64,000 nt of DNA from an uncultured virus (IMG/VR IMGVR_UViG_3300042898_003801). Lineage: Duplodnaviria > Heunggongvirae > Uroviricota > Caudoviricetes. The notes beneath the pieces were generated by a model. The model did no database searches. It saw nothing but the letters and a program-made list of their open reading frames with translations, and was not told the DNA's origin. The stretch spans positions 1 through 64,000 of IMG/VR virus record IMGVR_UViG_3300042898_003801. One strand, given 5' to 3'. Within the stretch, counting starts at the first letter, position 1. The number at the start of each line of letters is the position of its first letter. The translations under genes and the position numbers were made by a program. Below are positions 50,654 to 62,889 of the stretch, piece by piece.

Positions 50654-51442
50654 ATGACCGATCACTACGCCACACTGGGCGTTGCTAAAACTGCTACTGC
50701 AAATGAAATCAAACAGGCCTTTCGCCGGTTAGCCAGTCAGCATCATCCCGACAAGGGTGGCGACACAGCCAAATTCCAGGCCATCCAGGCCGCGTATGCC
50801 ACACTAGGCGATCCGCAGCAACGTGCCGCGTATGATAATCCTCGCCCACAAATGCCGCCTGGGTTTGGATTTCAATCCAATGGGCCATTTGATTTCAACA
50901 CAATATTCAACATGTTTGGCACAAGAATGCAATCGCCCGGGCAACAACGTCATCAACAGGCTCGCATGGATCTGTGGATCACAATAATGGACATTGCCAC
51001 AGGCGGGCGTAGAACTGTGAGCGTGGGCAGTCAACAGGGCACAATGACTGTGGAGATAGAAATTCCATTGGGCATAGAAGATGGCAACACAGTGCACTAT
51101 TCAGGTATTGGCCCCAGTGGAATGGATCTACTGGTCACTTACCGAGTGCATCCTCACCCTCGGTGGCAACGAAACGGACTAGCTCTTTCAACCAATCATG
51201 TGTTGCCTATCTGGGATCTGATACTGGGTTGTGATACTGTGTTTACAGACGTACAAGGCACAGAATTACTATTGACTATTCCGCCAAAAACTCAACCCGG
51301 AACTCAAATGAGAATGAAGGGTCGCGGCCTGCGGGCAAAATCTGGAATCGCTGGCGATATGTTAGTTGCTATACAAGCTCGTATACCCGACAACATATCC
51401 CCAGAACTCTTGGAAATGATAAAACAAAGTCAGACAAAATAA
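50654..51442 (+). CDS. dnaJ: DnaJ/CbpA-type co-chaperone (no Zn finger)
   Basis: J domain with HPD; C-terminal IP..TQPG...R..G.GL...GD. Confidence 0.9.
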   Translation: MTDHYATLGVAKTATANEIKQAFRRLASQHHPDKGGDTAKFQAIQAAYATLGDPQQRAAYDNPRPQMPPGFGFQSNGPFDFNTIFNMFGTRMQSPGQQRHQQARMDLWITIMDIATGGRRTVSVGSQQGTMTVEIEIPLGIEDGNTVHYSGIGPSGMDLLVTYRVHPHPRWQRNGLALSTNHVLPIWDLILGCDTVFTDVQGTELLLTIPPKTQPGTQMRMKGRGLRAKSGIAGDMLVAIQARIPDNISPELLEMIKQSQTK

Positions 51443-51512
51443 ATATTCGTAATGGTTGTATAAGTTTAAAAATCCTGTACAATAGTAATTGGGAATACAA
51501 GTAATAATATCC

Positions 51513-53786
51513 ATGCAAAATAATCCAGAAATTGAACAGATCCTTGAGTCAGCAGTTGCCATTGCTCATGCCTATAAACATGAATACGTCACAACCGAAC
51601 ATGTGTTGTTAGCATTGATACGTCACGATCCTTTTCGTCGTGTGGTAGAAAAGTTTGGGGCTGATGTAGCGTTATTTGATCAGGAGCTGACAAATTATAT
51701 CGGTAGCCTAGTAAGTTTAATCAAAGATCCTGCACCACAACCAAGGAAAACCAATGCGTTGGAGCGAGTGTTTAATCGCGCATTAACACAGGTACTGTTT
51801 ACTGGGCGCAAGCAAGTATCAACAATTGATTTAATGGTGGCCATGCTGGCAGAAACCAATGGACATGCACATTATTTCTTGTTGAAATACGGAATTAAGA
51901 AACAAGAGTTTATAGATTTCTGGCAGAGTAACTATACCCACGCCAGCGTGTCAATGAACGAAAATCAGGCCACACAGATATTAGAAGAGCATTGTACTAA
52001 TTTAACGCAATTGGCCAAAGAAGATCGACTAGAACCCATGATTGGGCGCAGTGTAGAACTAGAAGAAATGATCACAGTGTTGGCACGTAGATTCAAAGCC
52101 AACGTGCTGATGGTAGGCGATCCAGGTGTGGGCAAGACTGCAATCATTGATGGTCTTGCACAAGAAATTGCCGCTGACAGAGTTCCTGAATTTCTTCGAG
52201 GGCATGAAGTTTGGGGCTTGGAAATTGGCAGCTTGCTGGCAGGATCAAAATATCGCGGTGAGTTTGAAGAAAAGTTCAAACAGGTCATTGGAGCACTAGA
52301 AGCCAAGAAGAAATGTATTTTGTTCATAGACGAAGCACACACCATGATGGGTGCAGGTGCTGGTGGGCAAAGCAGTTTGGATTTTGCCAACATGTTGAAG
52401 CCAGCCATAACCAAAGGCAATCTCAAAGTGGTAGCCAGCACCACCTGGGAAGAATACTACGAGAGCTTTGAAAAAGATCGTGCGCTGATGCGTCGTTTCC
52501 ATCGTGTGGCAATTGACGAACCCACTCCCGGTACCACAGAACAGATCCTTATTGGGCTGAGTCCAAGATTAGAAAAGTTTCACAATGTGCTAATTGACAC
52601 TGCTGCCATAACTGCTGCAGTTGAACTGTCAGGCCGTTACATACACGATCGTAAGAATCCTGACAAGTCAATTGACCTGCTGGACGGTGCTTGTGCAAAA
52701 GAACGTGTTAAAGATCAAGGACAACTTACTATCACTCAAGAATTGATCATGGCACAGTTGGCTCGTACCACAGACATTCCAATTGATCGACTACAAAATG
52801 AACGTAGCACTAAAATTCTTGAATTAGAAAACAACATCAAGCAAAAGTTATACGGGCAAGACGAAGCAGTGGATTCAGTGCTTGAGCGAATTTACATTAA
52901 CTTTTCTGGCATTGGCAATGCTCGCCGACCTATTGCCAGCTTCTTGTTCCTAGGGCCAACTGGCACAGGCAAAACAGAATTGGCCAAACTGCTGGCGGAA
53001 AACTTGGACATGAAATTGCTCAAATATGACATGAGTGAGTACCAGGAGAAACACACAGTGTCAAGTTTGATTGGTGCACCACCTGGATATGTGGGATTTG
53101 AAGACGGCAATGTGGGTGGCGGCAAACTGATCAGCGATATCAGTAAGAATCCATTTAGTATTATTTTGTTTGATGAGATTGAAAAGGCACACCCAGATGT
53201 GATCAACATCATGTTGCAGATGTTGGACGAAGCAAGATTAACATCCAGCAATGGCAAAACTGTTGATCTTAAAAACGCCATTATCATTATGACATCTAAT
53301 TTGGGTGCGAGAGACAACGAGAATCATAACATTGGATTCAGTACTCTGTTAGAAAAATCTGGCGAAGAAGATCGGGCCATGAAAGAGTTTTTCAAGCCAG
53401 AATTGCGCAATAGGATTGATAGAGTTTGTAAATTTGCCAAACTTGACACACTGGCAATTAAGAAAATTGTGATCAAGTTTGTGGAAGAACTACAAACAAG
53501 TTTGGCAGCCAAACAAATACGATTGACATTGACCGAATCAGTGATTGATATGTTGGCCAACAAGGGCTATGATAAAAAGATGGGCGCACGTCCATTGGGT
53601 AGAAAAATCGACGAACTTATTCGTGTGCCATTGAGCAAGCGCATATTGTTTGATCGTCTTGAAAACTGTACCATTCACGCAGTGATGAAAGATGATAAAA
53701 TTGATTTTATGATAGAAGAAATTGCAAAACCCGTGGTCAACGAACAAGGATATATTGTACTTGATAACTTCAAACCTAAAATTTAA
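51513..53786 (+). CDS. clpA: ClpA-like AAA+ chaperone/protease subunit
   Basis: Clp N domain, GDPGVGKT, DEAH, GPTGTGKT, DEIEKAH, IGF loop, GARPL. Confidence 0.92.
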   Translation: MQNNPEIEQILESAVAIAHAYKHEYVTTEHVLLALIRHDPFRRVVEKFGADVALFDQELTNYIGSLVSLIKDPAPQPRKTNALERVFNRALTQVLFTGRKQVSTIDLMVAMLAETNGHAHYFLLKYGIKKQEFIDFWQSNYTHASVSMNENQATQILEEHCTNLTQLAKEDRLEPMIGRSVELEEMITVLARRFKANVLMVGDPGVGKTAIIDGLAQEIAADRVPEFLRGHEVWGLEIGSLLAGSKYRGEFEEKFKQVIGALEAKKKCILFIDEAHTMMGAGAGGQSSLDFANMLKPAITKGNLKVVASTTWEEYYESFEKDRALMRRFHRVAIDEPTPGTTEQILIGLSPRLEKFHNVLIDTAAITAAVELSGRYIHDRKNPDKSIDLLDGACAKERVKDQGQLTITQELIMAQLARTTDIPIDRLQNERSTKILELENNIKQKLYGQDEAVDSVLERIYINFSGIGNARRPIASFLFLGPTGTGKTELAKLLAENLDMKLLKYDMSEYQEKHTVSSLIGAPPGYVGFEDGNVGGGKLISDISKNPFSIILFDEIEKAHPDVINIMLQMLDEARLTSSNGKTVDLKNAIIIMTSNLGARDNENHNIGFSTLLEKSGEEDRAMKEFFKPELRNRIDRVCKFAKLDTLAIKKIVIKFVEELQTSLAAKQIRLTLTESVIDMLANKGYDKKMGARPLGRKIDELIRVPLSKRILFDRLENCTIHAVMKDDKIDFMIEEIAKPVVNEQGYIVLDNFKPKI

Positions 53787-55005: not shown

Positions 55006-56574
55006 ATGAATTATCTTGTAATATATCCCGGACGTTTCCATCCTTTTCATCGCGGTCATCGTGCCAGCTATGAATATCTTGCTAAAAAATACGGTGCTGA
55101 TCATGTGTACATTGCCACCACTGGTGTGCAAGCACCTGTAACCAGTCCATTTACCTTTGCTGACAAAGTTAAAATGATTACTACACTGGGCATTCCTGCC
55201 GGACATGTGGTCAAGGTTACTAATCCTTATCAAAGTCGAGAAATAACAGATTCAATTCCCACAGAAGAAAAATCCAAAACTGTGCTGATATTTGCACTCA
55301 GCGCCAAGGATGCAGAACGCTTTAGCTTTGCTCCTAAAAAAGACGGCACACCCAGTTATCTTCAGTCCATGCCTGCCAATCTCAAGCAGTTGACGCCAAT
55401 GACTGAGCATGCTTACGTAGAAATTACACCCACAGTTAATTTCAAAGTACGTGGTCAAGATGCCAACTCAGCCAGCCAAATCCGCAGTTTTTATATCAAA
55501 GGCAACAACAACGATCGAGATCAAGTTATAGCCGACCTATATGGTGAAGCTTACCCTGAGTTACGAGACATATTTGATAATCAACTGGGTGTCAGTGAAC
55601 GAGTACAGAATATAGTCCGAGAAGCCAAGTTACTTAACACTACAAAAAGCATAGCACTGATAGAACGCATATTGACCAAAGAGCGTCGTGCGTTGAACGA
55701 ATTTAGTGTCAACAGTGGCGATGATGGTTCCAGTGATGACCCATATCAGTATCCCAAGCCCGAACATTATGCCCGTAGCATAGATTACTTTGGTCAATTT
55801 GAAGCAGAACACTTTGACGAAGAAGATATGAATGATGCCACAGGCGAGTTCAAGGGTTACTGGTACTACGATGGCAAGCCGAGACAAATTGCCTATTTCA
55901 AGTTTGACAATCCCGAGCGCACCGGCAGTAATCATCCGGGCATGGGCTGGTACTATGAGCCACAAAACGAAGGTATAGCGGAGGCTAAAAGAAAGGAAAA
56001 GAAAAAAACTTCAAGATCCTTAGGCAGATATTTCTTTCCAGGTTACGGATACTATGGCAGTGGAGAATCTGGTGAAGGTGGCGGGGATGGGGGAGGTGAA
56101 GGTGTTGACCGGGGCATGGCAGAAGCAGAAAAAACAGCCAAAATCTTTCATCCACAGTATGTAGATGTATATTTTCTTAATGGTCCAAGAAGAACTCCCA
56201 CACTGGTCAATCGCCGAGTTCCGTACAATTTAATTGATAGATATTTAAAAGTAGTTGTTAAAAAATACAATCTGCATCAAGGTCGTTTTGAATTCAGAAA
56301 CGCCGAAGAACCACACATGGCCGAAGAATTCAGACCCACTGATGGCCAGGCTATGAATATACGTAGACAAACTGCACAAAAAATGAATCCAGTTACCGAC
56401 AAATTTGTTTGGAAAAGACCCAATCAAATAGGCGGTAGTCACAGTGAGAACGAACTTAAATCGTTGAATTTTAAATATTCAACAAAATACAACATGTGGG
56501 GCGGCACACAACAGATGTGGGATCGTCTGTCTGGTGCACTAAAAGAATCCACCGATTACCTTGAAGAAAAATAA
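55006..56574 (+). CDS. Modular late protein with N-terminal HxGH cytidyltransferase-like domain
   Basis: YPGRFHPFHRGH, SPF.F..K, SASQIR; further modules separated by xAE linkers. Confidence 0.75.
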   Translation: MNYLVIYPGRFHPFHRGHRASYEYLAKKYGADHVYIATTGVQAPVTSPFTFADKVKMITTLGIPAGHVVKVTNPYQSREITDSIPTEEKSKTVLIFALSAKDAERFSFAPKKDGTPSYLQSMPANLKQLTPMTEHAYVEITPTVNFKVRGQDANSASQIRSFYIKGNNNDRDQVIADLYGEAYPELRDIFDNQLGVSERVQNIVREAKLLNTTKSIALIERILTKERRALNEFSVNSGDDGSSDDPYQYPKPEHYARSIDYFGQFEAEHFDEEDMNDATGEFKGYWYYDGKPRQIAYFKFDNPERTGSNHPGMGWYYEPQNEGIAEAKRKEKKKTSRSLGRYFFPGYGYYGSGESGEGGGDGGGEGVDRGMAEAEKTAKIFHPQYVDVYFLNGPRRTPTLVNRRVPYNLIDRYLKVVVKKYNLHQGRFEFRNAEEPHMAEEFRPTDGQAMNIRRQTAQKMNPVTDKFVWKRPNQIGGSHSENELKSLNFKYSTKYNMWGGTQQMWDRLSGALKESTDYLEEK

Positions 56575-56624: not shown

Positions 56625-57521
56625 ATGGCAGACGAACAAGCAAAACCTACCACAGAAACCCCAGTGGCGCCGGGTCAGCAACAAATCCAAGTCAACATTG
56701 ACTATTTAAAAACCACAAGGGTGCACATTTGCATGCCCTGTTATGGTGGTATGCTCACAGAATCTACGTTTATGAGTTATATCAAATGGAGCAATGCCGC
56801 TCGTCAGTTGGGCATTGACTGGACCATGGAAACCATGACCAATGAAAGCTTGATCAGTCGTGCTAGAAACACCCTGACTGCTAAATTCTTGCACAACAAG
56901 GATTCCACACACCTGATGTTTATTGACGCAGACATTGGGTGGGAACCCTGGCACTTGATGGTATTGCTAGATCGTCAAGTTGATGTGATTGGCGGACTGT
57001 ATCCTATGAAAAGCCTGCCAGTCAAATGGTGTGTGAATGGATTCGACGGTGCAGAAGAAGGCCCCAATGGCCTACAAGAAGTTACCAAAACAGGTACAGG
57101 ATTTTTATTGATCAAACGCGATGTGTTTGAGAAAATGGATGCTCATCCTGCGGTGAAACCGTTTATGAATGATATTGGATTGCCAGTGGAACTTAATCCG
57201 CACATGAAAACCTACTTTGATACCGCAGTACGTGAAAATCGTTACTACTCAGAAGACTGGACATTCTGCGAAAACTGGCGTGATCTAGGTGGTAAAGTAT
57301 GGGTAGACAAACGTGTGCTGCTGAAACACACAGGAACTTATGTGTTTGATTTTGCCACACAAGATAACTTGTACAAAGAACTGCACAATTTGGCCTTGGC
57401 CAACGGCGCAGCCCTGGGCGGTGCTGCGGGTGTTGCTGCACCAGTGGATGTTCCCAAGCCTGTGGAAGCCAAAGTTTTAGCATCAAGCACTTCTAAAAAG
57501 AACAAAACCAAAGCCAAGTAA
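56625..57521 (+). CDS. GT-A glycosyltransferase-like protein
   Basis: PCYGG, ESLISRARN, FIDADI, G.GF.LIKR, SEDW.FC. Confidence 0.75.
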   Translation: MADEQAKPTTETPVAPGQQQIQVNIDYLKTTRVHICMPCYGGMLTESTFMSYIKWSNAARQLGIDWTMETMTNESLISRARNTLTAKFLHNKDSTHLMFIDADIGWEPWHLMVLLDRQVDVIGGLYPMKSLPVKWCVNGFDGAEEGPNGLQEVTKTGTGFLLIKRDVFEKMDAHPAVKPFMNDIGLPVELNPHMKTYFDTAVRENRYYSEDWTFCENWRDLGGKVWVDKRVLLKHTGTYVFDFATQDNLYKELHNLALANGAALGGAAGVAAPVDVPKPVEAKVLASSTSKKNKTKAK

Positions 57522-57543
57522 CTATTCGGTAAATACAGTTCGT

Positions 57544-60500
57544 ATGAACATCACCGAATTAGATTCCTATAACCTTGCCGACGCAGTAAAATTCAATGAC
57601 AAATTGAACCCTGTGATCTGGCAAGGCCAGCACATGCGCCCCGAAGTTCGCGATCAACTGCTGACCATTGCAGAAGATTTTCGCGAACATCTTGGGCTTG
57701 CCAACATAGACGTCAAAGACATCACAGTGCTGGGTAGCAATGCCGGCTACACATACACTCCACATTCTGACATTGATCTACATTTGGTAGTTCGAATGCC
57801 ACATGCCGATAACGAAGTGTACCGTGAATTGTTTGATGCTAAAAAGTACCAATATAATGACACCCACAACATCACCATTGGCGGATATGAAGTTGAGCTT
57901 TATGTAGAAGACGCAGACAAGCCTGCAGTCAGTCAAGGTGTGTTCAGTGTGTTGAACAACGATTGGGTGCATATACCACGACAAAGACCTGCCACAGTGA
58001 ATGACAATGCAGTTCGCAGCAAATACAATGATCTCAAGCACAGAATTGATTCAGCAGTTGCTGGCAAAAATTTGACCAAAATCTCACAGTTGATTGACAA
58101 AATCAAACGCATGCGCTTGGCCGGATTGGCCCAAAACGGCGAACTGGGCGGAGAAAATCTTGCGTACAAAATGCTACGTACACAAGGTGATATTTCTCGA
58201 TTGCATGATGCACGTAATGCTGCACATGATGAAGAGTTAAGTCTAGTAGAATCCACCATAATGTCCAAGCCCAGGATGACCTATGGATTTAATAGCAAAA
58301 AGAAGCTGGCCGAAGTAGAAATAACTCCGGATGGTGTTAGCCCTAGTACCAAAATGTTCTTGAGTGAAACCGATGATGAAAGTATTTTACGAGATTTTGT
58401 GGCATTCTGTGCAAAAGAACTTGAATTAGAAACAGAACCACAAATACGATTGCGTAGAGATCCAGCTTGGTCAGCACGAAACCGAACATTTGGTCGTTAT
58501 GATCACGACACAAACCAATTGGAAATCAGCATAGGCAATCGGCACATCATGGATGTGTTGCGTACCTGCGCACACGAACTCACTCATCAACGTCAAGGTG
58601 AAACACAAACAATAGCGCCCGACTCTGGACACACAGGATCACCTGAAGAAAATGAAGCCAATGCAGCAGCCGGCATTATCATGCGTCGATACGGTGCCAT
58701 GCATCCGGAACTGTTTGAAAAGTCCACAGTGGCAGAAGCCAGTGGGTATATTCCTACCACTGCTGAAATGCATGATCCCAGATTTGAGATGGCCATTACT
58801 CAGGATGTACGTCCTGGCGCCATTGGTCGTGCAGCCAATGCTTTTTTACTAAACACCGACGCACAAGGTCATCCACAAGAACTACGCCCAGACGGCCTGG
58901 TCAAGCGATTGGCTGAACAGTTGGCCGCTTTCAAACGACCATTGAGTGAAGCTGAACAACTAGACGAAATCAACATGGGTGGCAAAAGCCTAAGAAAGTT
59001 GTCAAAGTCTGTTGATGCACGAGCCGGCATTGAATTTGAAATGATTGTGCCCAATGTTGAAGGCGGCGAGTATGATTTTCAGCCAGAGCCTGATTATGAC
59101 AATTACAACGAAACTGCCCGGGATATTGATGGAATCATTGAATTTTTTGATGACCGCGATTTTAACGGCGCCAGAGCCATAAGAGAGTTGCGAACTGAGC
59201 TTGAGTCAAATTACCTTGATTGGCGTGAAACTAAAATTTACGAAGACTGGACCGATAACGGATTTGATTTCTTTGCTGAATGGGTGGCCAACAACATTGA
59301 TCCAGAAGAAATTATTGCTTACCTTGACAAAGATTCAGACTATAACATAACCAAAGACGACATACTGAACTATTCCAATTATCTGTGGGAAGAAGCCGGC
59401 GAATCCAGAGACGAAGCTCTTGAAGAATTTAGAGATGAAAAAAAGGATGATGGCGAGTATGACGAAGAACAATGGTTGAGATCTGAAGGCATACGAGACA
59501 TGCAGGATGTAGAAAGTGCTTATAGTACTAGGATTACTTGGCCCCACTGGACCGAAGACGATGGCATGGGCGATGGCACTTACAGTATAGAAGCAGTGGC
59601 TGAAAGTTTTGAAAAGGCCATTGGTCGACCAGTGATGTGGGGCGACGATTATCACAACATAGATCGCGACGATGCATATAGTCAAGGTGCGTATATTGTT
59701 GAGCCTGACGGCAGCTTAGAAGCCAATAGTGGCAATGATCGCGGATTAGAATTTATTAGCCCACCCTTGCCTCTGGATGAACTGGCCAAGGACATGCAAA
59801 AAGTCAAAAAGTGGGCCGACTCCAATGGTTGCTATACCAGCAAAGCAAACAAAACTGGCCTGCATATCAATGTGAGTGTACCGGGACTTGATGCAGAAAT
59901 GAAAAATCTTGATCTTGTCAAACTGGCATTGTTGTTGGGTGACAACTATGTGGCTAAAGAATTTGGAAGATTGGGTAATACCTACGCCAAGTCAGTGTAC
60001 AATATTGTCATGAACAATATAAAAAATCGTCCCGAAACTGCAGAAGTTTTGTTGGATCGCATGCGTGAAAATCTAAGCAAAGCTGCCACTCGTGTGATAC
60101 ACAACGCCCAGACAGACAAGTACAGTTCAATCAATGTCAAAAATGGCTATATTGAATTTAGATCTCCAGGTGGTGATTGGTTGGATGCAAACTTTGATAA
60201 GATTCAAACGACACTAGAACGATTTGTTGTGGCCACTGATGCAGCAGTGGATCCTGCAAAGTATCGACAAGAGTATCTAAAGAAACTGTATCGTGCATTG
60301 AGTGGCACAGAGATTGAACACGGTAGAAATCCTGCTACCGGAAAGAAAACTTTTAAGATTGCTACCGAAGCAGACTTTGCTAACCTGTTGTCAGAATACA
60401 TGGCTGGAAAAATCAACCGAGAGGAATTGACAAGAATTGCCGCGGAGCAACGTCAACTCGGCCAAGACAAGCCCAAAGACAAACAACAGTATCGCATGGT

Positions 60501-61971
60501 CAATCCTGACACCTATCAAGAATATGCAAGGTTCACTGCTACCAGTGCCGAAAAGGCTGATGCACAGGCCAAACTCTATGCCGCTGAAAACGACATTGCT
60601 TTTTACAACTATATTGTTTTAGATTCCGGCATGCAAGTAGTGGGCGGAGATATACGCCACACTGCAACTCCTGGGCGACAAAGTGATCCCAATGGTCGTT
60701 ATGAAATTATAAATCGTGCCACCGGAGCGGAAGCTCGGCCAAGATTCATGTTCAGTGCGGTACCACAACAAATACCCTATGTGTTGCAGGCCTGGGCCAA
60801 CAGAAACGGCACTGCACCCACAGACTGGACAGTGATCGACACAGAAAGTGGCATTGAAGTAAATTCAACAACACCAACAACTGTTGGCGCTTCAAGAGTT
60901 GAACCACTATGGACAGTGAGCTTGCTAGACAACATGGCACGCTATGTAGAAGTTCGTGCACCAAATGAACTGTCAGCATTGGCGGCTGCGCATGAAACTG
61001 ATCCAACAAACTTCCCAATGACAGTGACCACAGATGATGTTATCATTACTCCAAGGGCACAACAATTACCAACTCCACGTCCGATACCGGGTGTAGAAGA
61101 CGTTCCACTTGATCTTGAATTTGCACAAAGGACTGTTCCAGGATCTACTATAGACCTAGCACAACAACGAGCAACACCCGGTACATTCACTGGTGCGTGG
61201 AAAGTAGTAGACAGCAACACTGGAGAAGAACTCCACAGATTCAGCGGTATAGGCAACAGCCAAGAAGATGCTAACAGAGTTGCTGGACAATGGGTACGAA
61301 GCAACAGTATTGCAGTTCCCACTGAAGTGTATCCAATAATGAGTGAGTCAGTGACTGAATCATTTATCAATGCTTTGATCAAGCTTGATCAAGAACCTTG
61401 GGCTCTGACTGAATCTACAAATAATTTTGAAATCAAAAAAAGCAGTTTGTTTGATAAAACAGTACAGAACAAATCAGAGCAACTTCCTGATTTAGCAAAT
61501 AAAATACAAGAATTTTTAAAGTTTAAAATGGTCACGCCAGGTCAACCCTGGGGCAACGACTCTCCGTTTATTGCTGCAGGACCACTGGGGTCTGCAATAC
61601 CAAAATTACGACACGCACATTTAACCAGAGACCTTAGTTTATATTATACCATTGAAGGTCGCAATCCCACAGTCATCAAACTGTATGGCGTATTCAATCA
61701 TCACGAAAGTGGCACAGGAACTCCTAAGAATATTAACAAACAAAAAAACTTAGCAAGACAATTGGTCAATCAGGAAGTTGCTGAAACTAAAAATCCCAAC
61801 ACAACCTATAAACTATGGTCTGCTCCTGTAAAAATAAAACAGCCGACCTACACAGGCTACATTGATGTTGCTGTGACTGCACAAAATGCACATTTGGCCA
61901 GACAATTAATGAAAGCACAGTACGGTGTGGCAGACTGGGAAATTGGTAGTGTAAAAGAAGTAAAAGTATGA
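57544..61971 (+). CDS. 1475-aa multidomain protein: nucleotidyltransferase + HExxH peptidase-like + amidoligase + RelE/YafQ-like
   Basis: GSN....SDIDLH; HELTH; GIEFE, DGSL, E.ISPP, GLHIN, KY, IEFR; RHAHL..D..L.Y...L.G..H. Confidence 0.75.
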   Translation: MNITELDSYNLADAVKFNDKLNPVIWQGQHMRPEVRDQLLTIAEDFREHLGLANIDVKDITVLGSNAGYTYTPHSDIDLHLVVRMPHADNEVYRELFDAKKYQYNDTHNITIGGYEVELYVEDADKPAVSQGVFSVLNNDWVHIPRQRPATVNDNAVRSKYNDLKHRIDSAVAGKNLTKISQLIDKIKRMRLAGLAQNGELGGENLAYKMLRTQGDISRLHDARNAAHDEELSLVESTIMSKPRMTYGFNSKKKLAEVEITPDGVSPSTKMFLSETDDESILRDFVAFCAKELELETEPQIRLRRDPAWSARNRTFGRYDHDTNQLEISIGNRHIMDVLRTCAHELTHQRQGETQTIAPDSGHTGSPEENEANAAAGIIMRRYGAMHPELFEKSTVAEASGYIPTTAEMHDPRFEMAITQDVRPGAIGRAANAFLLNTDAQGHPQELRPDGLVKRLAEQLAAFKRPLSEAEQLDEINMGGKSLRKLSKSVDARAGIEFEMIVPNVEGGEYDFQPEPDYDNYNETARDIDGIIEFFDDRDFNGARAIRELRTELESNYLDWRETKIYEDWTDNGFDFFAEWVANNIDPEEIIAYLDKDSDYNITKDDILNYSNYLWEEAGESRDEALEEFRDEKKDDGEYDEEQWLRSEGIRDMQDVESAYSTRITWPHWTEDDGMGDGTYSIEAVAESFEKAIGRPVMWGDDYHNIDRDDAYSQGAYIVEPDGSLEANSGNDRGLEFISPPLPLDELAKDMQKVKKWADSNGCYTSKANKTGLHINVSVPGLDAEMKNLDLVKLALLLGDNYVAKEFGRLGNTYAKSVYNIVMNNIKNRPETAEVLLDRMRENLSKAATRVIHNAQTDKYSSINVKNGYIEFRSPGGDWLDANFDKIQTTLERFVVATDAAVDPAKYRQEYLKKLYRALSGTEIEHGRNPATGKKTFKIATEADFANLLSEYMAGKINREELTRIAAEQRQLGQDKPKDKQQYRMVNPDTYQEYARFTATSAEKADAQAKLYAAENDIAFYNYIVLDSGMQVVGGDIRHTATPGRQSDPNGRYEIINRATGAEARPRFMFSAVPQQIPYVLQAWANRNGTAPTDWTVIDTESGIEVNSTTPTTVGASRVEPLWTVSLLDNMARYVEVRAPNELSALAAAHETDPTNFPMTVTTDDVIITPRAQQLPTPRPIPGVEDVPLDLEFAQRTVPGSTIDLAQQRATPGTFTGAWKVVDSNTGEELHRFSGIGNSQEDANRVAGQWVRSNSIAVPTEVYPIMSESVTESFINALIKLDQEPWALTESTNNFEIKKSSLFDKTVQNKSEQLPDLANKIQEFLKFKMVTPGQPWGNDSPFIAAGPLGSAIPKLRHAHLTRDLSLYYTIEGRNPTVIKLYGVFNHHESGTGTPKNINKQKNLARQLVNQEVAETKNPNTTYKLWSAPVKIKQPTYTGYIDVAVTAQNAHLARQLMKAQYGVADWEIGSVKEVKV

Positions 61972-62252
61972 CACAGCAATTTGTGAAAGTTGTGGCTGAT
62001 GTTCACTGTGATTATGAGACTGGTCAACTGCCTATCTATAGACTGTATGTGAACAATGAATTGTTCACAGAACGCACATGGATCTGGGAAAATGTTTATC
62101 TTGAAGAAATGATACCTATATTGGCAGAACCTGGTGATTACAAGATCCGTTATGAGCTGGTACCGGGCACTTCTGCAGGGTTAAATATACAGAACTTGCG
62201 AGTAGCAGAAGGCACTGCTACCATACAAGATTCCACAGTGAGGATAAGATAA
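61968..62252 (+). CDS. Hypothetical protein
   Basis: P.YRLYVNNELFTERTW motif. Confidence 0.7.
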   Translation: MTQQFVKVVADVHCDYETGQLPIYRLYVNNELFTERTWIWENVYLEEMIPILAEPGDYKIRYELVPGTSAGLNIQNLRVAEGTATIQDSTVRIR

Positions 62253-62449
62253 TGCGAGCACAAGAATTTATACGTGAAAATGCATCAGCAGGTGCCACAG
62301 GTTCAGGCAGTATCGCCACCGTTGCCACACCCATGGGCGGTGTGATTTCTCGAAATGCCGGCAGTTTCTTTGCCGGGCATAAATACTCTAATGACGAGAC
62401 TCCAAACACGCCAGAGTCTTACAAAACATACAAGAAACGGAAAAAGTAA
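62252..62449 (+). CDS. Small late protein
   Basis: MRAQEFIRE N-terminus; TAATG coupling both ends. Confidence 0.65.
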   Translation: MRAQEFIRENASAGATGSGSIATVATPMGGVISRNAGSFFAGHKYSNDETPNTPESYKTYKKRKK

Positions 62450-62889
62450 TGTTAGCTGATTTGTTAAAAACACTGTTGGGAACACAGTTTGCACACTATG
62501 TGAAAGCACATGCTTTTCATTGGAATGTAGAAACTCCTGACTTTTATCAGTATCACAAGTTTTTTCAGAAAATATATGAAGATGCCTATTCTGCAGTGGA
62601 TCCCATAGCAGAATATATCCGTAGCCTGGGCGAATATGCACCAGGCAGTATGGAACGTCTTTTAGAACTCAGTGTAATACCCGGACAAAGCAAAATACCT
62701 CGCGCCCGACTCATGGTAGAAGAATTGCTGGCCGACAGTGAAATCTTGGTTGATTTGTTGAACCAATGTTTTACTGCCGCCACCCAAGAAAACAAACAAG
62801 ACATTGCCAATTTCATTGCCGAAAGATTGAGTCAAACCAACAAGTTTGCCTGGCAACTACGTGCAACACTAAAAGAGGTAAGGGCGTGA
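62449..62889 (+). CDS. dps: Dps (DNA-binding ferritin-like protein)
   Basis: K.H.FHWNV...F..YH.FF..IY....D.IAE.IR.LG...K..W.L. Confidence 0.9.
   Translation: MLADLLKTLLGTQFAHYVKAHAFHWNVETPDFYQYHKFFQKIYEDAYSAVDPIAEYIRSLGEYAPGSMERLLELSVIPGQSKIPRARLMVEELLADSEILVDLLNQCFTAATQENKQDIANFIAERLSQTNKFAWQLRATLKEVRA

Follow-up and report, generated by a model that had tools for sequence, protein, structure and literature searches.

A predicted polyprotein precursor of head-internal proteins, built of enzyme modules, in an uncultured T4-like phage

The gene and its modules

The window analysed here is a stretch of 64,000 nucleotides (nt), positions 1 to 64,000 of the IMG/VR record IMGVR_UViG_3300042898_003801 (uncultured virus, Caudoviricetes). 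Near its right end lies an open reading frame (ORF) encoding a protein of 1475 amino acids (aa). With a probability of roughly 0.68, this protein is packaged as a polyprotein and divided by the prohead protease into several head-internal proteins, the cutting being deduced from a short motif at the module borders. An earlier note, made from the sequence alone, had placed the ORF here behind a late promoter and described it as a polyvalent effector with nucleotidyltransferase (NTase), peptidase-like, amidoligase and RNase-toxin-like modules. The ORF, the promoter and all motifs named in that note were found where it had put them. Three features are additional to it: a module of ~70 aa (58738-58968), a last module of 61 aa (61786-61968) and Glu-ended border motifs. 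The gene is organized as follows:

57544..61971, +: complete ORF of 1475 aa; predicted to encode a polyprotein that gives rise to head-internal proteins
57530..57535, +: T4-type late promoter core TAAATA, 8 nt 5' of the ATG
57544..57561, +: N-terminal M-N-I-x-E-L, a candidate signal for capsid targeting; genes nearby have similar leaders, M-R-A-x-E-F
57544..58251, +: Pol-beta NTase, residues 1-236, with C-terminal helical bundle; ends at L-x-E236
58252..58368, +: spacer, residues 237-275, short and poorly folded; has motif sites at E257 and E275 and receives inserts in relatives
58369..58737, +: minimal zincin, residues 276-398; H344-E345-x-x-H348 plus E369; ends at V-A-E398
58738..58968, +: conserved small module, residues 399-475; low-confidence fold; sites E469 and E475
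58969..60318, +: Amidoligase_2/glutamine-synthetase-fold ligase, residues 476-925, with acidic helical insert (Pfam, model)
60319..61347, +: helical connector, then four small domains of beta-beta-alpha-beta type (domains ~981-1268), variable among relatives; ends I-M-S-E1268
61348..61413, +: short helical pre-segment ending W-A-L-T-E1290; accompanies the RNase-like cassette in many relatives
61414..61785, +: YafQ/RelE-like RNase-fold cassette, residues 1291-1414; H1357, D1363 and H1386 conserved; ends V-A-E1414
61786..61968, +: last module, 61 aa, basic; a separate gene with targeting-like leader in most relatives

Of 55 distinct homologous genes, 53 have TAAATA no more than 30 nt 5' of the start, compared with ~1.3% by chance. 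A scan for sigma-70 promoters and terminators was uninformative.

A chimeric assembly, which the earlier note had named as a possible objection, was ruled out. The gene is present at 100% identity in two other viral contigs, and its core order recurs in 119 of 120 homologs (see below). Half or more of its words occur in 24 lake metagenome runs, 7 of which are possible sources; no RNA data set is listed among the runs that contain it. Contigs from four runs unmarked as possible sources bridge every module border; no joint falls within the gene, and no single contig covers it completely.

Folds and catalytic residues

Among 7998 candidates scored, 1202 matching proteins of 811-2582 aa were obtained, and the best 120 were examined. 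NTase, zincin, small module, ligase and last tail domain are common to 119 or 120 of them, and the order NTase-zincin-ligase is kept in 119. By contrast, the RNase-like module occurs in 3 and the last module in 1. On this comparison, NTase-zincin-ligase is the conserved core, to which the RNase-like module and the last module are exchangeable additions. Other relatives carry GH19, deaminase, LysM or Nudix cassettes instead.

The structural models agree with the NTase and zincin motifs recognized earlier, although no PDB match reached a Foldseek E value of 0.001 or below for either model, so that the fold calls rely on consistent top rows and VIA Z-scores. For residues 1-475, the predicted local distance difference test (pLDDT) is 76. 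The NTase motifs start at 57733 (GSN), 57766 (SDIDLH) and 57895 (ELY), and G64, S65, D76, D78 and E118 are invariant in 55/55 aligned homologs. The Pfam family NTP_transf_2 is weak in the protein itself but found in all 55 of these homologs. Aminoglycoside nucleotidyltransferases and CD-NTases occupy the top Foldseek rows for model 1-236 (best E 0.0012). This confirms, at the level of the model, a Pol-beta fold with invariant catalytic residues.

In the zincin (HELTH at 58573, E369 at 58648), H344, E345, H348 and E369 are all invariant, and an intact HExxH+E is present in 120/120 examined homologs. Foldseek matched the model (276-390) to proabylysin 4jiu (probability 1.00, E 0.011), while VIA gave Z values of 9.2 for YbeY-like 1oz9, 8.8 for Wss1 and 8.6 for a SPRTN-type protein; the modelled zincin fold is confirmed as well. 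The adjacent small module, residues 399-475, is present in 120/120 examined homologs and had no family match in profile libraries.

The ligase scores 25.3 bits with Pfam Amidoligase_2 (PF12224; cut-off 22). Its motifs start at 59026 (GIEFE), 59701 (EPDGSL), 59749 (EFISPP), 59857 (GLHIN), 60118 (KY) and 60151 (IEFR). E497, E499, E720, D722, E736, H774, R809, K859, E871 and R873 are invariant in 72/72 homologs; the module thereby has ExE / E / H / R / ExR, which we take to be the catalytic set of amidoligases with the glutamine synthetase/glutamate-cysteine ligase (GS/GCS) fold. The model of residues 476-1268 has a pLDDT of 80. According to VIA, its ligase part resembles glutamine synthetase (Z 10.7, root-mean-square deviation 4.3, 196 residues aligned), Dop (8.8) and PafA (7.9). 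It also resembles glutamate-cysteine ligase, and in BFVD it matches phage amidoligases including that of Atu_ph07 (E 2e-13). Profile searches of alignments A3 and A5 against PDB sequences yielded nothing significant. The model and the invariant residues together confirm a GS/GCS-type ligase, in line with the amidoligase named in the earlier note. The acidic insert (59059-59613; Asp+Glu 31%) is modelled as helices.

For the four tail domains, neither the family libraries nor Atlas contained a named relative (Atlas clusters unnamed, <= 0.82). Iterated profiles of these domains and the last module did not retrieve one another, so that only secondary structure suggests a shared family. Ligase and tail domains are probably one product, since no conserved motif lies between them.

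The region that had been called RelE/YafQ-like is a real module; its YafQ-like fold is plausible, not secure. Outside the 3 examined homologs mentioned above, it is mostly a stand-alone gene, and a search with RNase-like plus last module found 303 relatives at E <= 0.001. The Pfam family YafQ matched 11/96 aligned homologs (best E 4e-5) but not the module of this protein itself. The family profile reached HP0892 in the PDB at E 0.007 over ~90 residues, and Atlas gave 0.89, with ten of ten named matches in one clan, RelE. The last 205 aa as a single sequence had no match in the PDB. H1386, D1363 and H1359 align with His87, Asp67 and His63/50 of YafQ/HP0892-type toxins, in which the roles of the catalytic residues are described (PMC4652777, PMC7584586; what we cite from papers by PMC number refers to the excerpts available of them). 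The Glu58 position is His1357, and the C-terminal Phe is absent. Among 11 neighbouring genes scanned, no antitoxin family was found.

The pre-segment 1269-1290 is possibly a propeptide of the RNase-like cassette: In 28/87 homologs with a longer leader, W-x-hydrophobic-x-E is found, and a border motif lies at most 22 aa from the domain in 62/87, compared with 12% inside the domain. The last module resembles DpnD-PcfM weakly (5/32 homologs, best E 0.011). Elsewhere it is encoded by 43 distinct stand-alone genes.

A Glu-ended motif at the module borders

The modules are joined at the motif hydrophobic-x-Glu, which is kept in 33/33 diverse homologs at E5, E236, E398 and E475. E5 and L6 of the N-terminal leader are invariant in all 33. 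Elsewhere in the protein, most matches lack conservation; one at E720 is found in 26/32 homologs, but this Glu is catalytic and precedes a Pro. The background frequency of the tripeptide motif is 1.5%. When fixed anchors were used, the motif was found at the ligase start in 118/118 homologs (2 of 120 unanchored) and at the NTase end in 95/95 (25 of 120 unanchored). Past the last tail domain, 55/105 proteins stop, and Glu is present in 48/50 of those that continue. At the E398 border, P1 is Glu in 96/110 and P3 is L, V or I in 93/110, whereas P2 comprises ten different residues (10/120 unanchored). Over all borders, P3 is L or I plus V and M.

Insertions follow the same borders. All 41 inserts of at least 45 aa in residues 1-930 lie near 250, 389-399 or 444-472 and none inside a domain, and all 17 inserts at E398 begin with the motif (background 18%). 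In the structure model, E257/E275 and E398 sit in low-confidence linkers.

In some lineages, a DNA-level exchange route is hinted at: One fixed 12-mer encodes 56/103 G-V-A-E joints in relatives (L005-L079; expected 0.6%). No exact copy of it was found in the ORFs of this genome; a fixed DNA linker is therefore not the explanation of the joints here.

The motif corresponds to a known processing signal. T4 gp21 cleaves after L/I-X-E, and T4 internal proteins bear targeting leaders of 10-19 residues (PMC9026906). The capsid protein of relative G001 has L-K-E before NASAG at residue 43 and that of Atu_ph07 L-M-E before NATAG, which by analogy to T4 gp23 would be the capsid maturation sites; the scaffold of G001 has many such sites. 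These parallels bear on an alternative in which a packaged polyvalent protein is cut by its own zincin, either before packaging or after entry. Such autoprocessing would agree with the intact zincin of all examined homologs, and Iyer et al. proposed this role for P1 DdrB-like proteins (PMC5512222). However, gp21 signal and capsid-propeptide site both have this very motif, the same joints are seen in nearby strings and single genes that lack a zincin, and ligase genes separated from the zincin retain the same border. We regard autoprocessing as improbable.

Leaders and split forms

When modules occur as separate genes, they start with a leader M-R/K-x-x-E-F/I. It is present in 37/43 last-module genes and in 49/148 matches of the search with RNase-like plus last module, compared with 12/437 ORFs of G001. 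Single loci illustrate how modules are parted. The L054 gene is divided after the small module, its ligase half starting with a leader, and in L034 a second ligase gene likewise has one. In L075, the split follows the zincin and a leader has been gained, and in L065 the last module is inserted between the zincin and the next module. RsoM2USA_26 and AUZ94978.1 of Atu_ph07 are stand-alone ligases; their leaders of 9 and 13 residues have L-x-E as the last residues, at the counterpart of the E475 border. Comparison of these genes demonstrates that fused and split forms are equivalent and that cassettes are exchanged at the joints.

Could the protein act as one intact multidomain effector, with the Glu motifs as uncut leader ends left from gene fusions? 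Fusion of leader-bearing genes would leave such remnants, the core order is stable, and phage N4 vRNAP with its zincin is packaged uncut (PMC5512222). But remnants should decay, yet the P1 Glu and the P3 hydrophobic residue are kept while P2 and the flanks vary freely, and core modules are also found split or reordered. An intact effector is unlikely. This means that of the earlier designation, polyvalent effector, the unrelated enzymatic domains in one chain were borne out, whereas a cut precursor is the better reading than a single intact effector.

A virion-borne ligase in a cultured relative

AUZ94978.1 corresponds to Atu_ph07 gp196, based on gene order (portal = coding sequence 198, 1755 bp) and mass (57.93 computed versus 57.94 kDa listed). 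Gp196 is among the virion proteins of Atu_ph07, with 14 unique peptides and 30.2% coverage (PMC6102473, Table S5). In the excerpt available, the list gives no N-terminal peptide for it. Together with the late promoter, this virion-detected homolog provides indirect support for virion delivery of the 1475-aa protein.

Another virion protein of Atu_ph07, the motif-rich 98-kDa gp108 (L113 16924-19515), was listed as the most abundant in the smallest gel band, which is consistent with many internal cuts. Several other listed Atu_ph07 proteins also ran far below their mass.

Genomes and neighbouring genes

Homolog loci are located on contigs of up to 353 kb, and as judged from the sequences compared, the family belongs to T4-like phages of ~340 kb. 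Homologs of gp23 and gp21 are encoded in 4/5 near-complete relatives; in G001, the prohead protease gene is located at about 204405-205052. The nearest cultured phages are RsoM2USA and Atu_ph07 for the ligase and cyanophages, Lak, Molly and Cr30 for the NTase. Several genes around the 1475-aa gene carry Glu-ended motifs (G000 coordinates where indicated):

55006..56574, +: cytidylyltransferase-like gene with late promoter; its C-terminal half consists of cassettes joined at the same Glu motif
62252..62449, +: 65-aa gene; leader ends I-R-E, then NASAG
63505 to G000 66759 (window end 64000), +: 1084-aa string of small, mostly basic modules with targeting-like leader and Glu-ended joints
G000 66756-68243: 495-aa three-module string with targeting-like leader and Glu-ended joints
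G000 68916-70901: 661-aa amidoligase, the second of this family here, behind a late promoter of its own; L-D-E precedes the domain

Neighbourhood counts were taken over 75 loci of relatives. A homolog of the cytidylyltransferase-like gene adjoins the 1475-aa gene in 68 of them; the gene probably encodes a second polyprotein. The 1084-aa string is probably a third; homologs of the 1475-aa protein contain some modules of the 1084-aa and 495-aa strings as cassettes. The 65-aa gene has a homolog in 43/75 loci, and the NASAG of its product resembles the mature capsid-protein start in G001 and Atu_ph07. Two ligase genes are also found in relatives L034 and L076. The five or six leader-bearing genes of this genome all lie within 62-72 kb, directly downstream.

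A glycosyltransferase-like gene (56625-57521, phrog_1574) is located directly upstream and kept in 75/75 loci. The cluster is flanked by genes for DnaJ and a ClpA-like chaperone (50654-53786) and for Dps/ferritin (62449-62889), found in ~59-63 of 75 loci.

According to a further alternative, the protein acts late in the cytoplasm or in head assembly, as core filler or as enzymes modifying phage or host molecules, and is not ejected. It would fit the late promoter, the DnaJ, ClpA, Dps and glycosyltransferase-like neighbours and the acidic insert, which is similar to core proteins; scaffold and core proteins are likewise cut at many such sites. On the other hand, invariant catalytic residues make a filler unlikely, the chitinase/lysozyme-like, deaminase, Nudix and LysM cassettes that relatives swap in are what conflict cargo would be expected to contain, and a ligase homolog persists in mature virions. 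We give a non-ejected protein a low probability.

Proposed mechanism

As a head-internal polyprotein, the precursor would be made late and carried into the prohead core by its N-terminal leader. A gp21-type prohead protease would then cut after hydrophobic-x-Glu at the module borders, as the motif suggests. About six products are predicted: NTase (26 kDa), zincin (14 kDa), small module (8 kDa), ligase with four tail domains (90 kDa), YafQ-like module (14 kDa) and basic module (7 kDa). They would probably be ejected with the DNA and act early, as T4 IPI-III and Alt do. For the ligase, the most likely reaction would be to link the carboxyl of a glutamate with an amine of a host protein or metabolite, the variable tails picking the target. 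The NTase may add a nucleotide to a host protein, an RNA or a small molecule, and the RNase fold may cut RNA. Modules could be gained, lost, fused or split in frame without harm to their neighbours because each joint would be a cut site. Packaging and cutting taken together with ejection and host-directed action are slightly better than an even bet. Anti-defence roles of the modules are a guess from the analogy to T4 internal proteins (IPs) and Alt.

Several points weigh against this interpretation. The motif is short and common: The protein contains 26 matches, many of them within domains. E236 is the end of a predicted helix, and the alignment is uninformative at the E1414 border. In any multidomain protein, inserts are expected at domain borders, and the homolog counts are not independent events because the sequences are kin. 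Some tests of the borders were weaker. Only 11/17 inserts at E398 end in the strict motif at their right edge, and both edges of an insert coincide with the motif in 11/41 cases (null mean 2.7, maximum 9). Unanchored alignment edges lay near the motif in 368/1059 and 342/1007 cases, against null means of 156 and 171; this ungapped edge test is noisy because divergent loops in the ligase and tail domains were counted as edges. Among RNase-like homologs, 60/147 start at most 14 aa from the domain, and the leader lacks a cut site in 27/43 stand-alone last-module genes. A prohead protease gene was found in 0/5 fragments, the own record of 75 kb (22% complete) included. In regard to the virion, the detection of gp196 concerns a stand-alone ligase and not a cut polyprotein. 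The Atu_ph07 particles were purified with polyethylene glycol (PEG) and also yielded 1-3 peptides of RecA-like, SSB and ribonucleotide reductase (RNR) proteins (PMC6102473). RsoM2USA ORF26 is not among the ten bands identified, according to the excerpt of PMC8504454.

The polyprotein proposal can be extended to a cassette cargo system of T4-like jumbo phages. One leader would load an enzyme string into the prohead, the head protease would free the modules, and in-frame swaps at cut sites, in relatives via the fixed 12-base linker, would update the kit. This kit would include a virion-borne PafA-like ligase that tags host proteins upon entry and is aimed by swappable tails, and an RNase silenced by its propeptide until it is in the capsid. 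In this complete form, the idea is tentative and on balance doubtful.

Comparison with known systems

T4 IPI-III and Alt (PMC9026906) are similar in being late genes with a short N-terminal leader, L/I-X-E and variable cargo, and gp21 and gp23 homologs are encoded in related genomes. They differ in that each T4 protein yields a single product by loss of terminal propeptides, whereas here at least six modules with internal sites are present in one chain. In Pfam or PHROGs scans, no sequence match to IPs or Alt was found.

Polyvalent proteins (Iyer et al., 2017, PMC5512222) share unrelated enzymatic domains, a zincin, a Pol-beta NTase, a BECR-fold RNase-like domain, variable architectures and predicted delivery with the DNA. 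Their definition, a phage polypeptide that combines 2-15 biochemically unrelated domains, applies to the 1475-aa protein, whose zincin has HExxH plus a helix glutamate. In contrast, the excerpt attributes their processing to a zincin within the chain or to a fused assemblin. The NTase of these proteins is minimal, linked to ArdC-N and found in firmicute elements, and the excerpt describes neither an amidoligase nor a prohead-protease joint. The hallmark domains LPDs, PBECR, ArdC-N, ART and methylase-helicase had no Pfam match in the 1475-aa protein.

With phage Amidoligase_2 proteins (PF12224; Atu_ph07 gp196, RsoM2USA_26; GS/GCS fold including PafA and Dop), the ligase has fold and catalytic set in common, and with gp196 and RsoM2USA_26 also the acidic insert and an N-terminal border after L-x-E. 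Here, however, it forms part of a fused string, with four small variable domains behind it. The ribosome-dependent RNase toxins YafQ and HP0892 share a profile over ~90 residues and the Asp67 and His87 equivalents. The present module differs in having His for HP0892 Glu58, no C-terminal Phe, an extra GTG-P-N tail, no antitoxin gene seen, and its occurrence as a phage cargo cassette. SPN3US and phiKZ head ejection proteins (PMC10052503) are also numerous protease-processed proteins in giant-phage heads and are cut after Glu, but all 14 sites reported in the excerpt remove terminal propeptides, and it contains no multi-enzyme string.

This architecture and internal head-protease joints are not described in the excerpts of PMC5512222, PMC7824862, PMC9503650 and PMC10052503. 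A literature search whose coverage excluded subscription papers and the Iyer supplements found no description of this protein or of protease-cut enzyme strings in phage heads. The present analysis adds the confirmation of the folds, the equivalence of fused and split forms including those of cultured phages, and the link of the virion detection of gp196 to this family.

Atu_ph07 gp196 makes a virion-borne amidoligase testable in a cultured phage. If the cutting is true, the joint motifs would mark the exact boundaries at which each unknown enzyme can be expressed, and leader plus joint motifs would allow the injected proteins of uncultured jumbo phages to be catalogued from sequence. It would also mean that phages load several enzymes together in the form of true polyproteins that the head protease processes, and would connect T4 internal proteins with polyvalent proteins.

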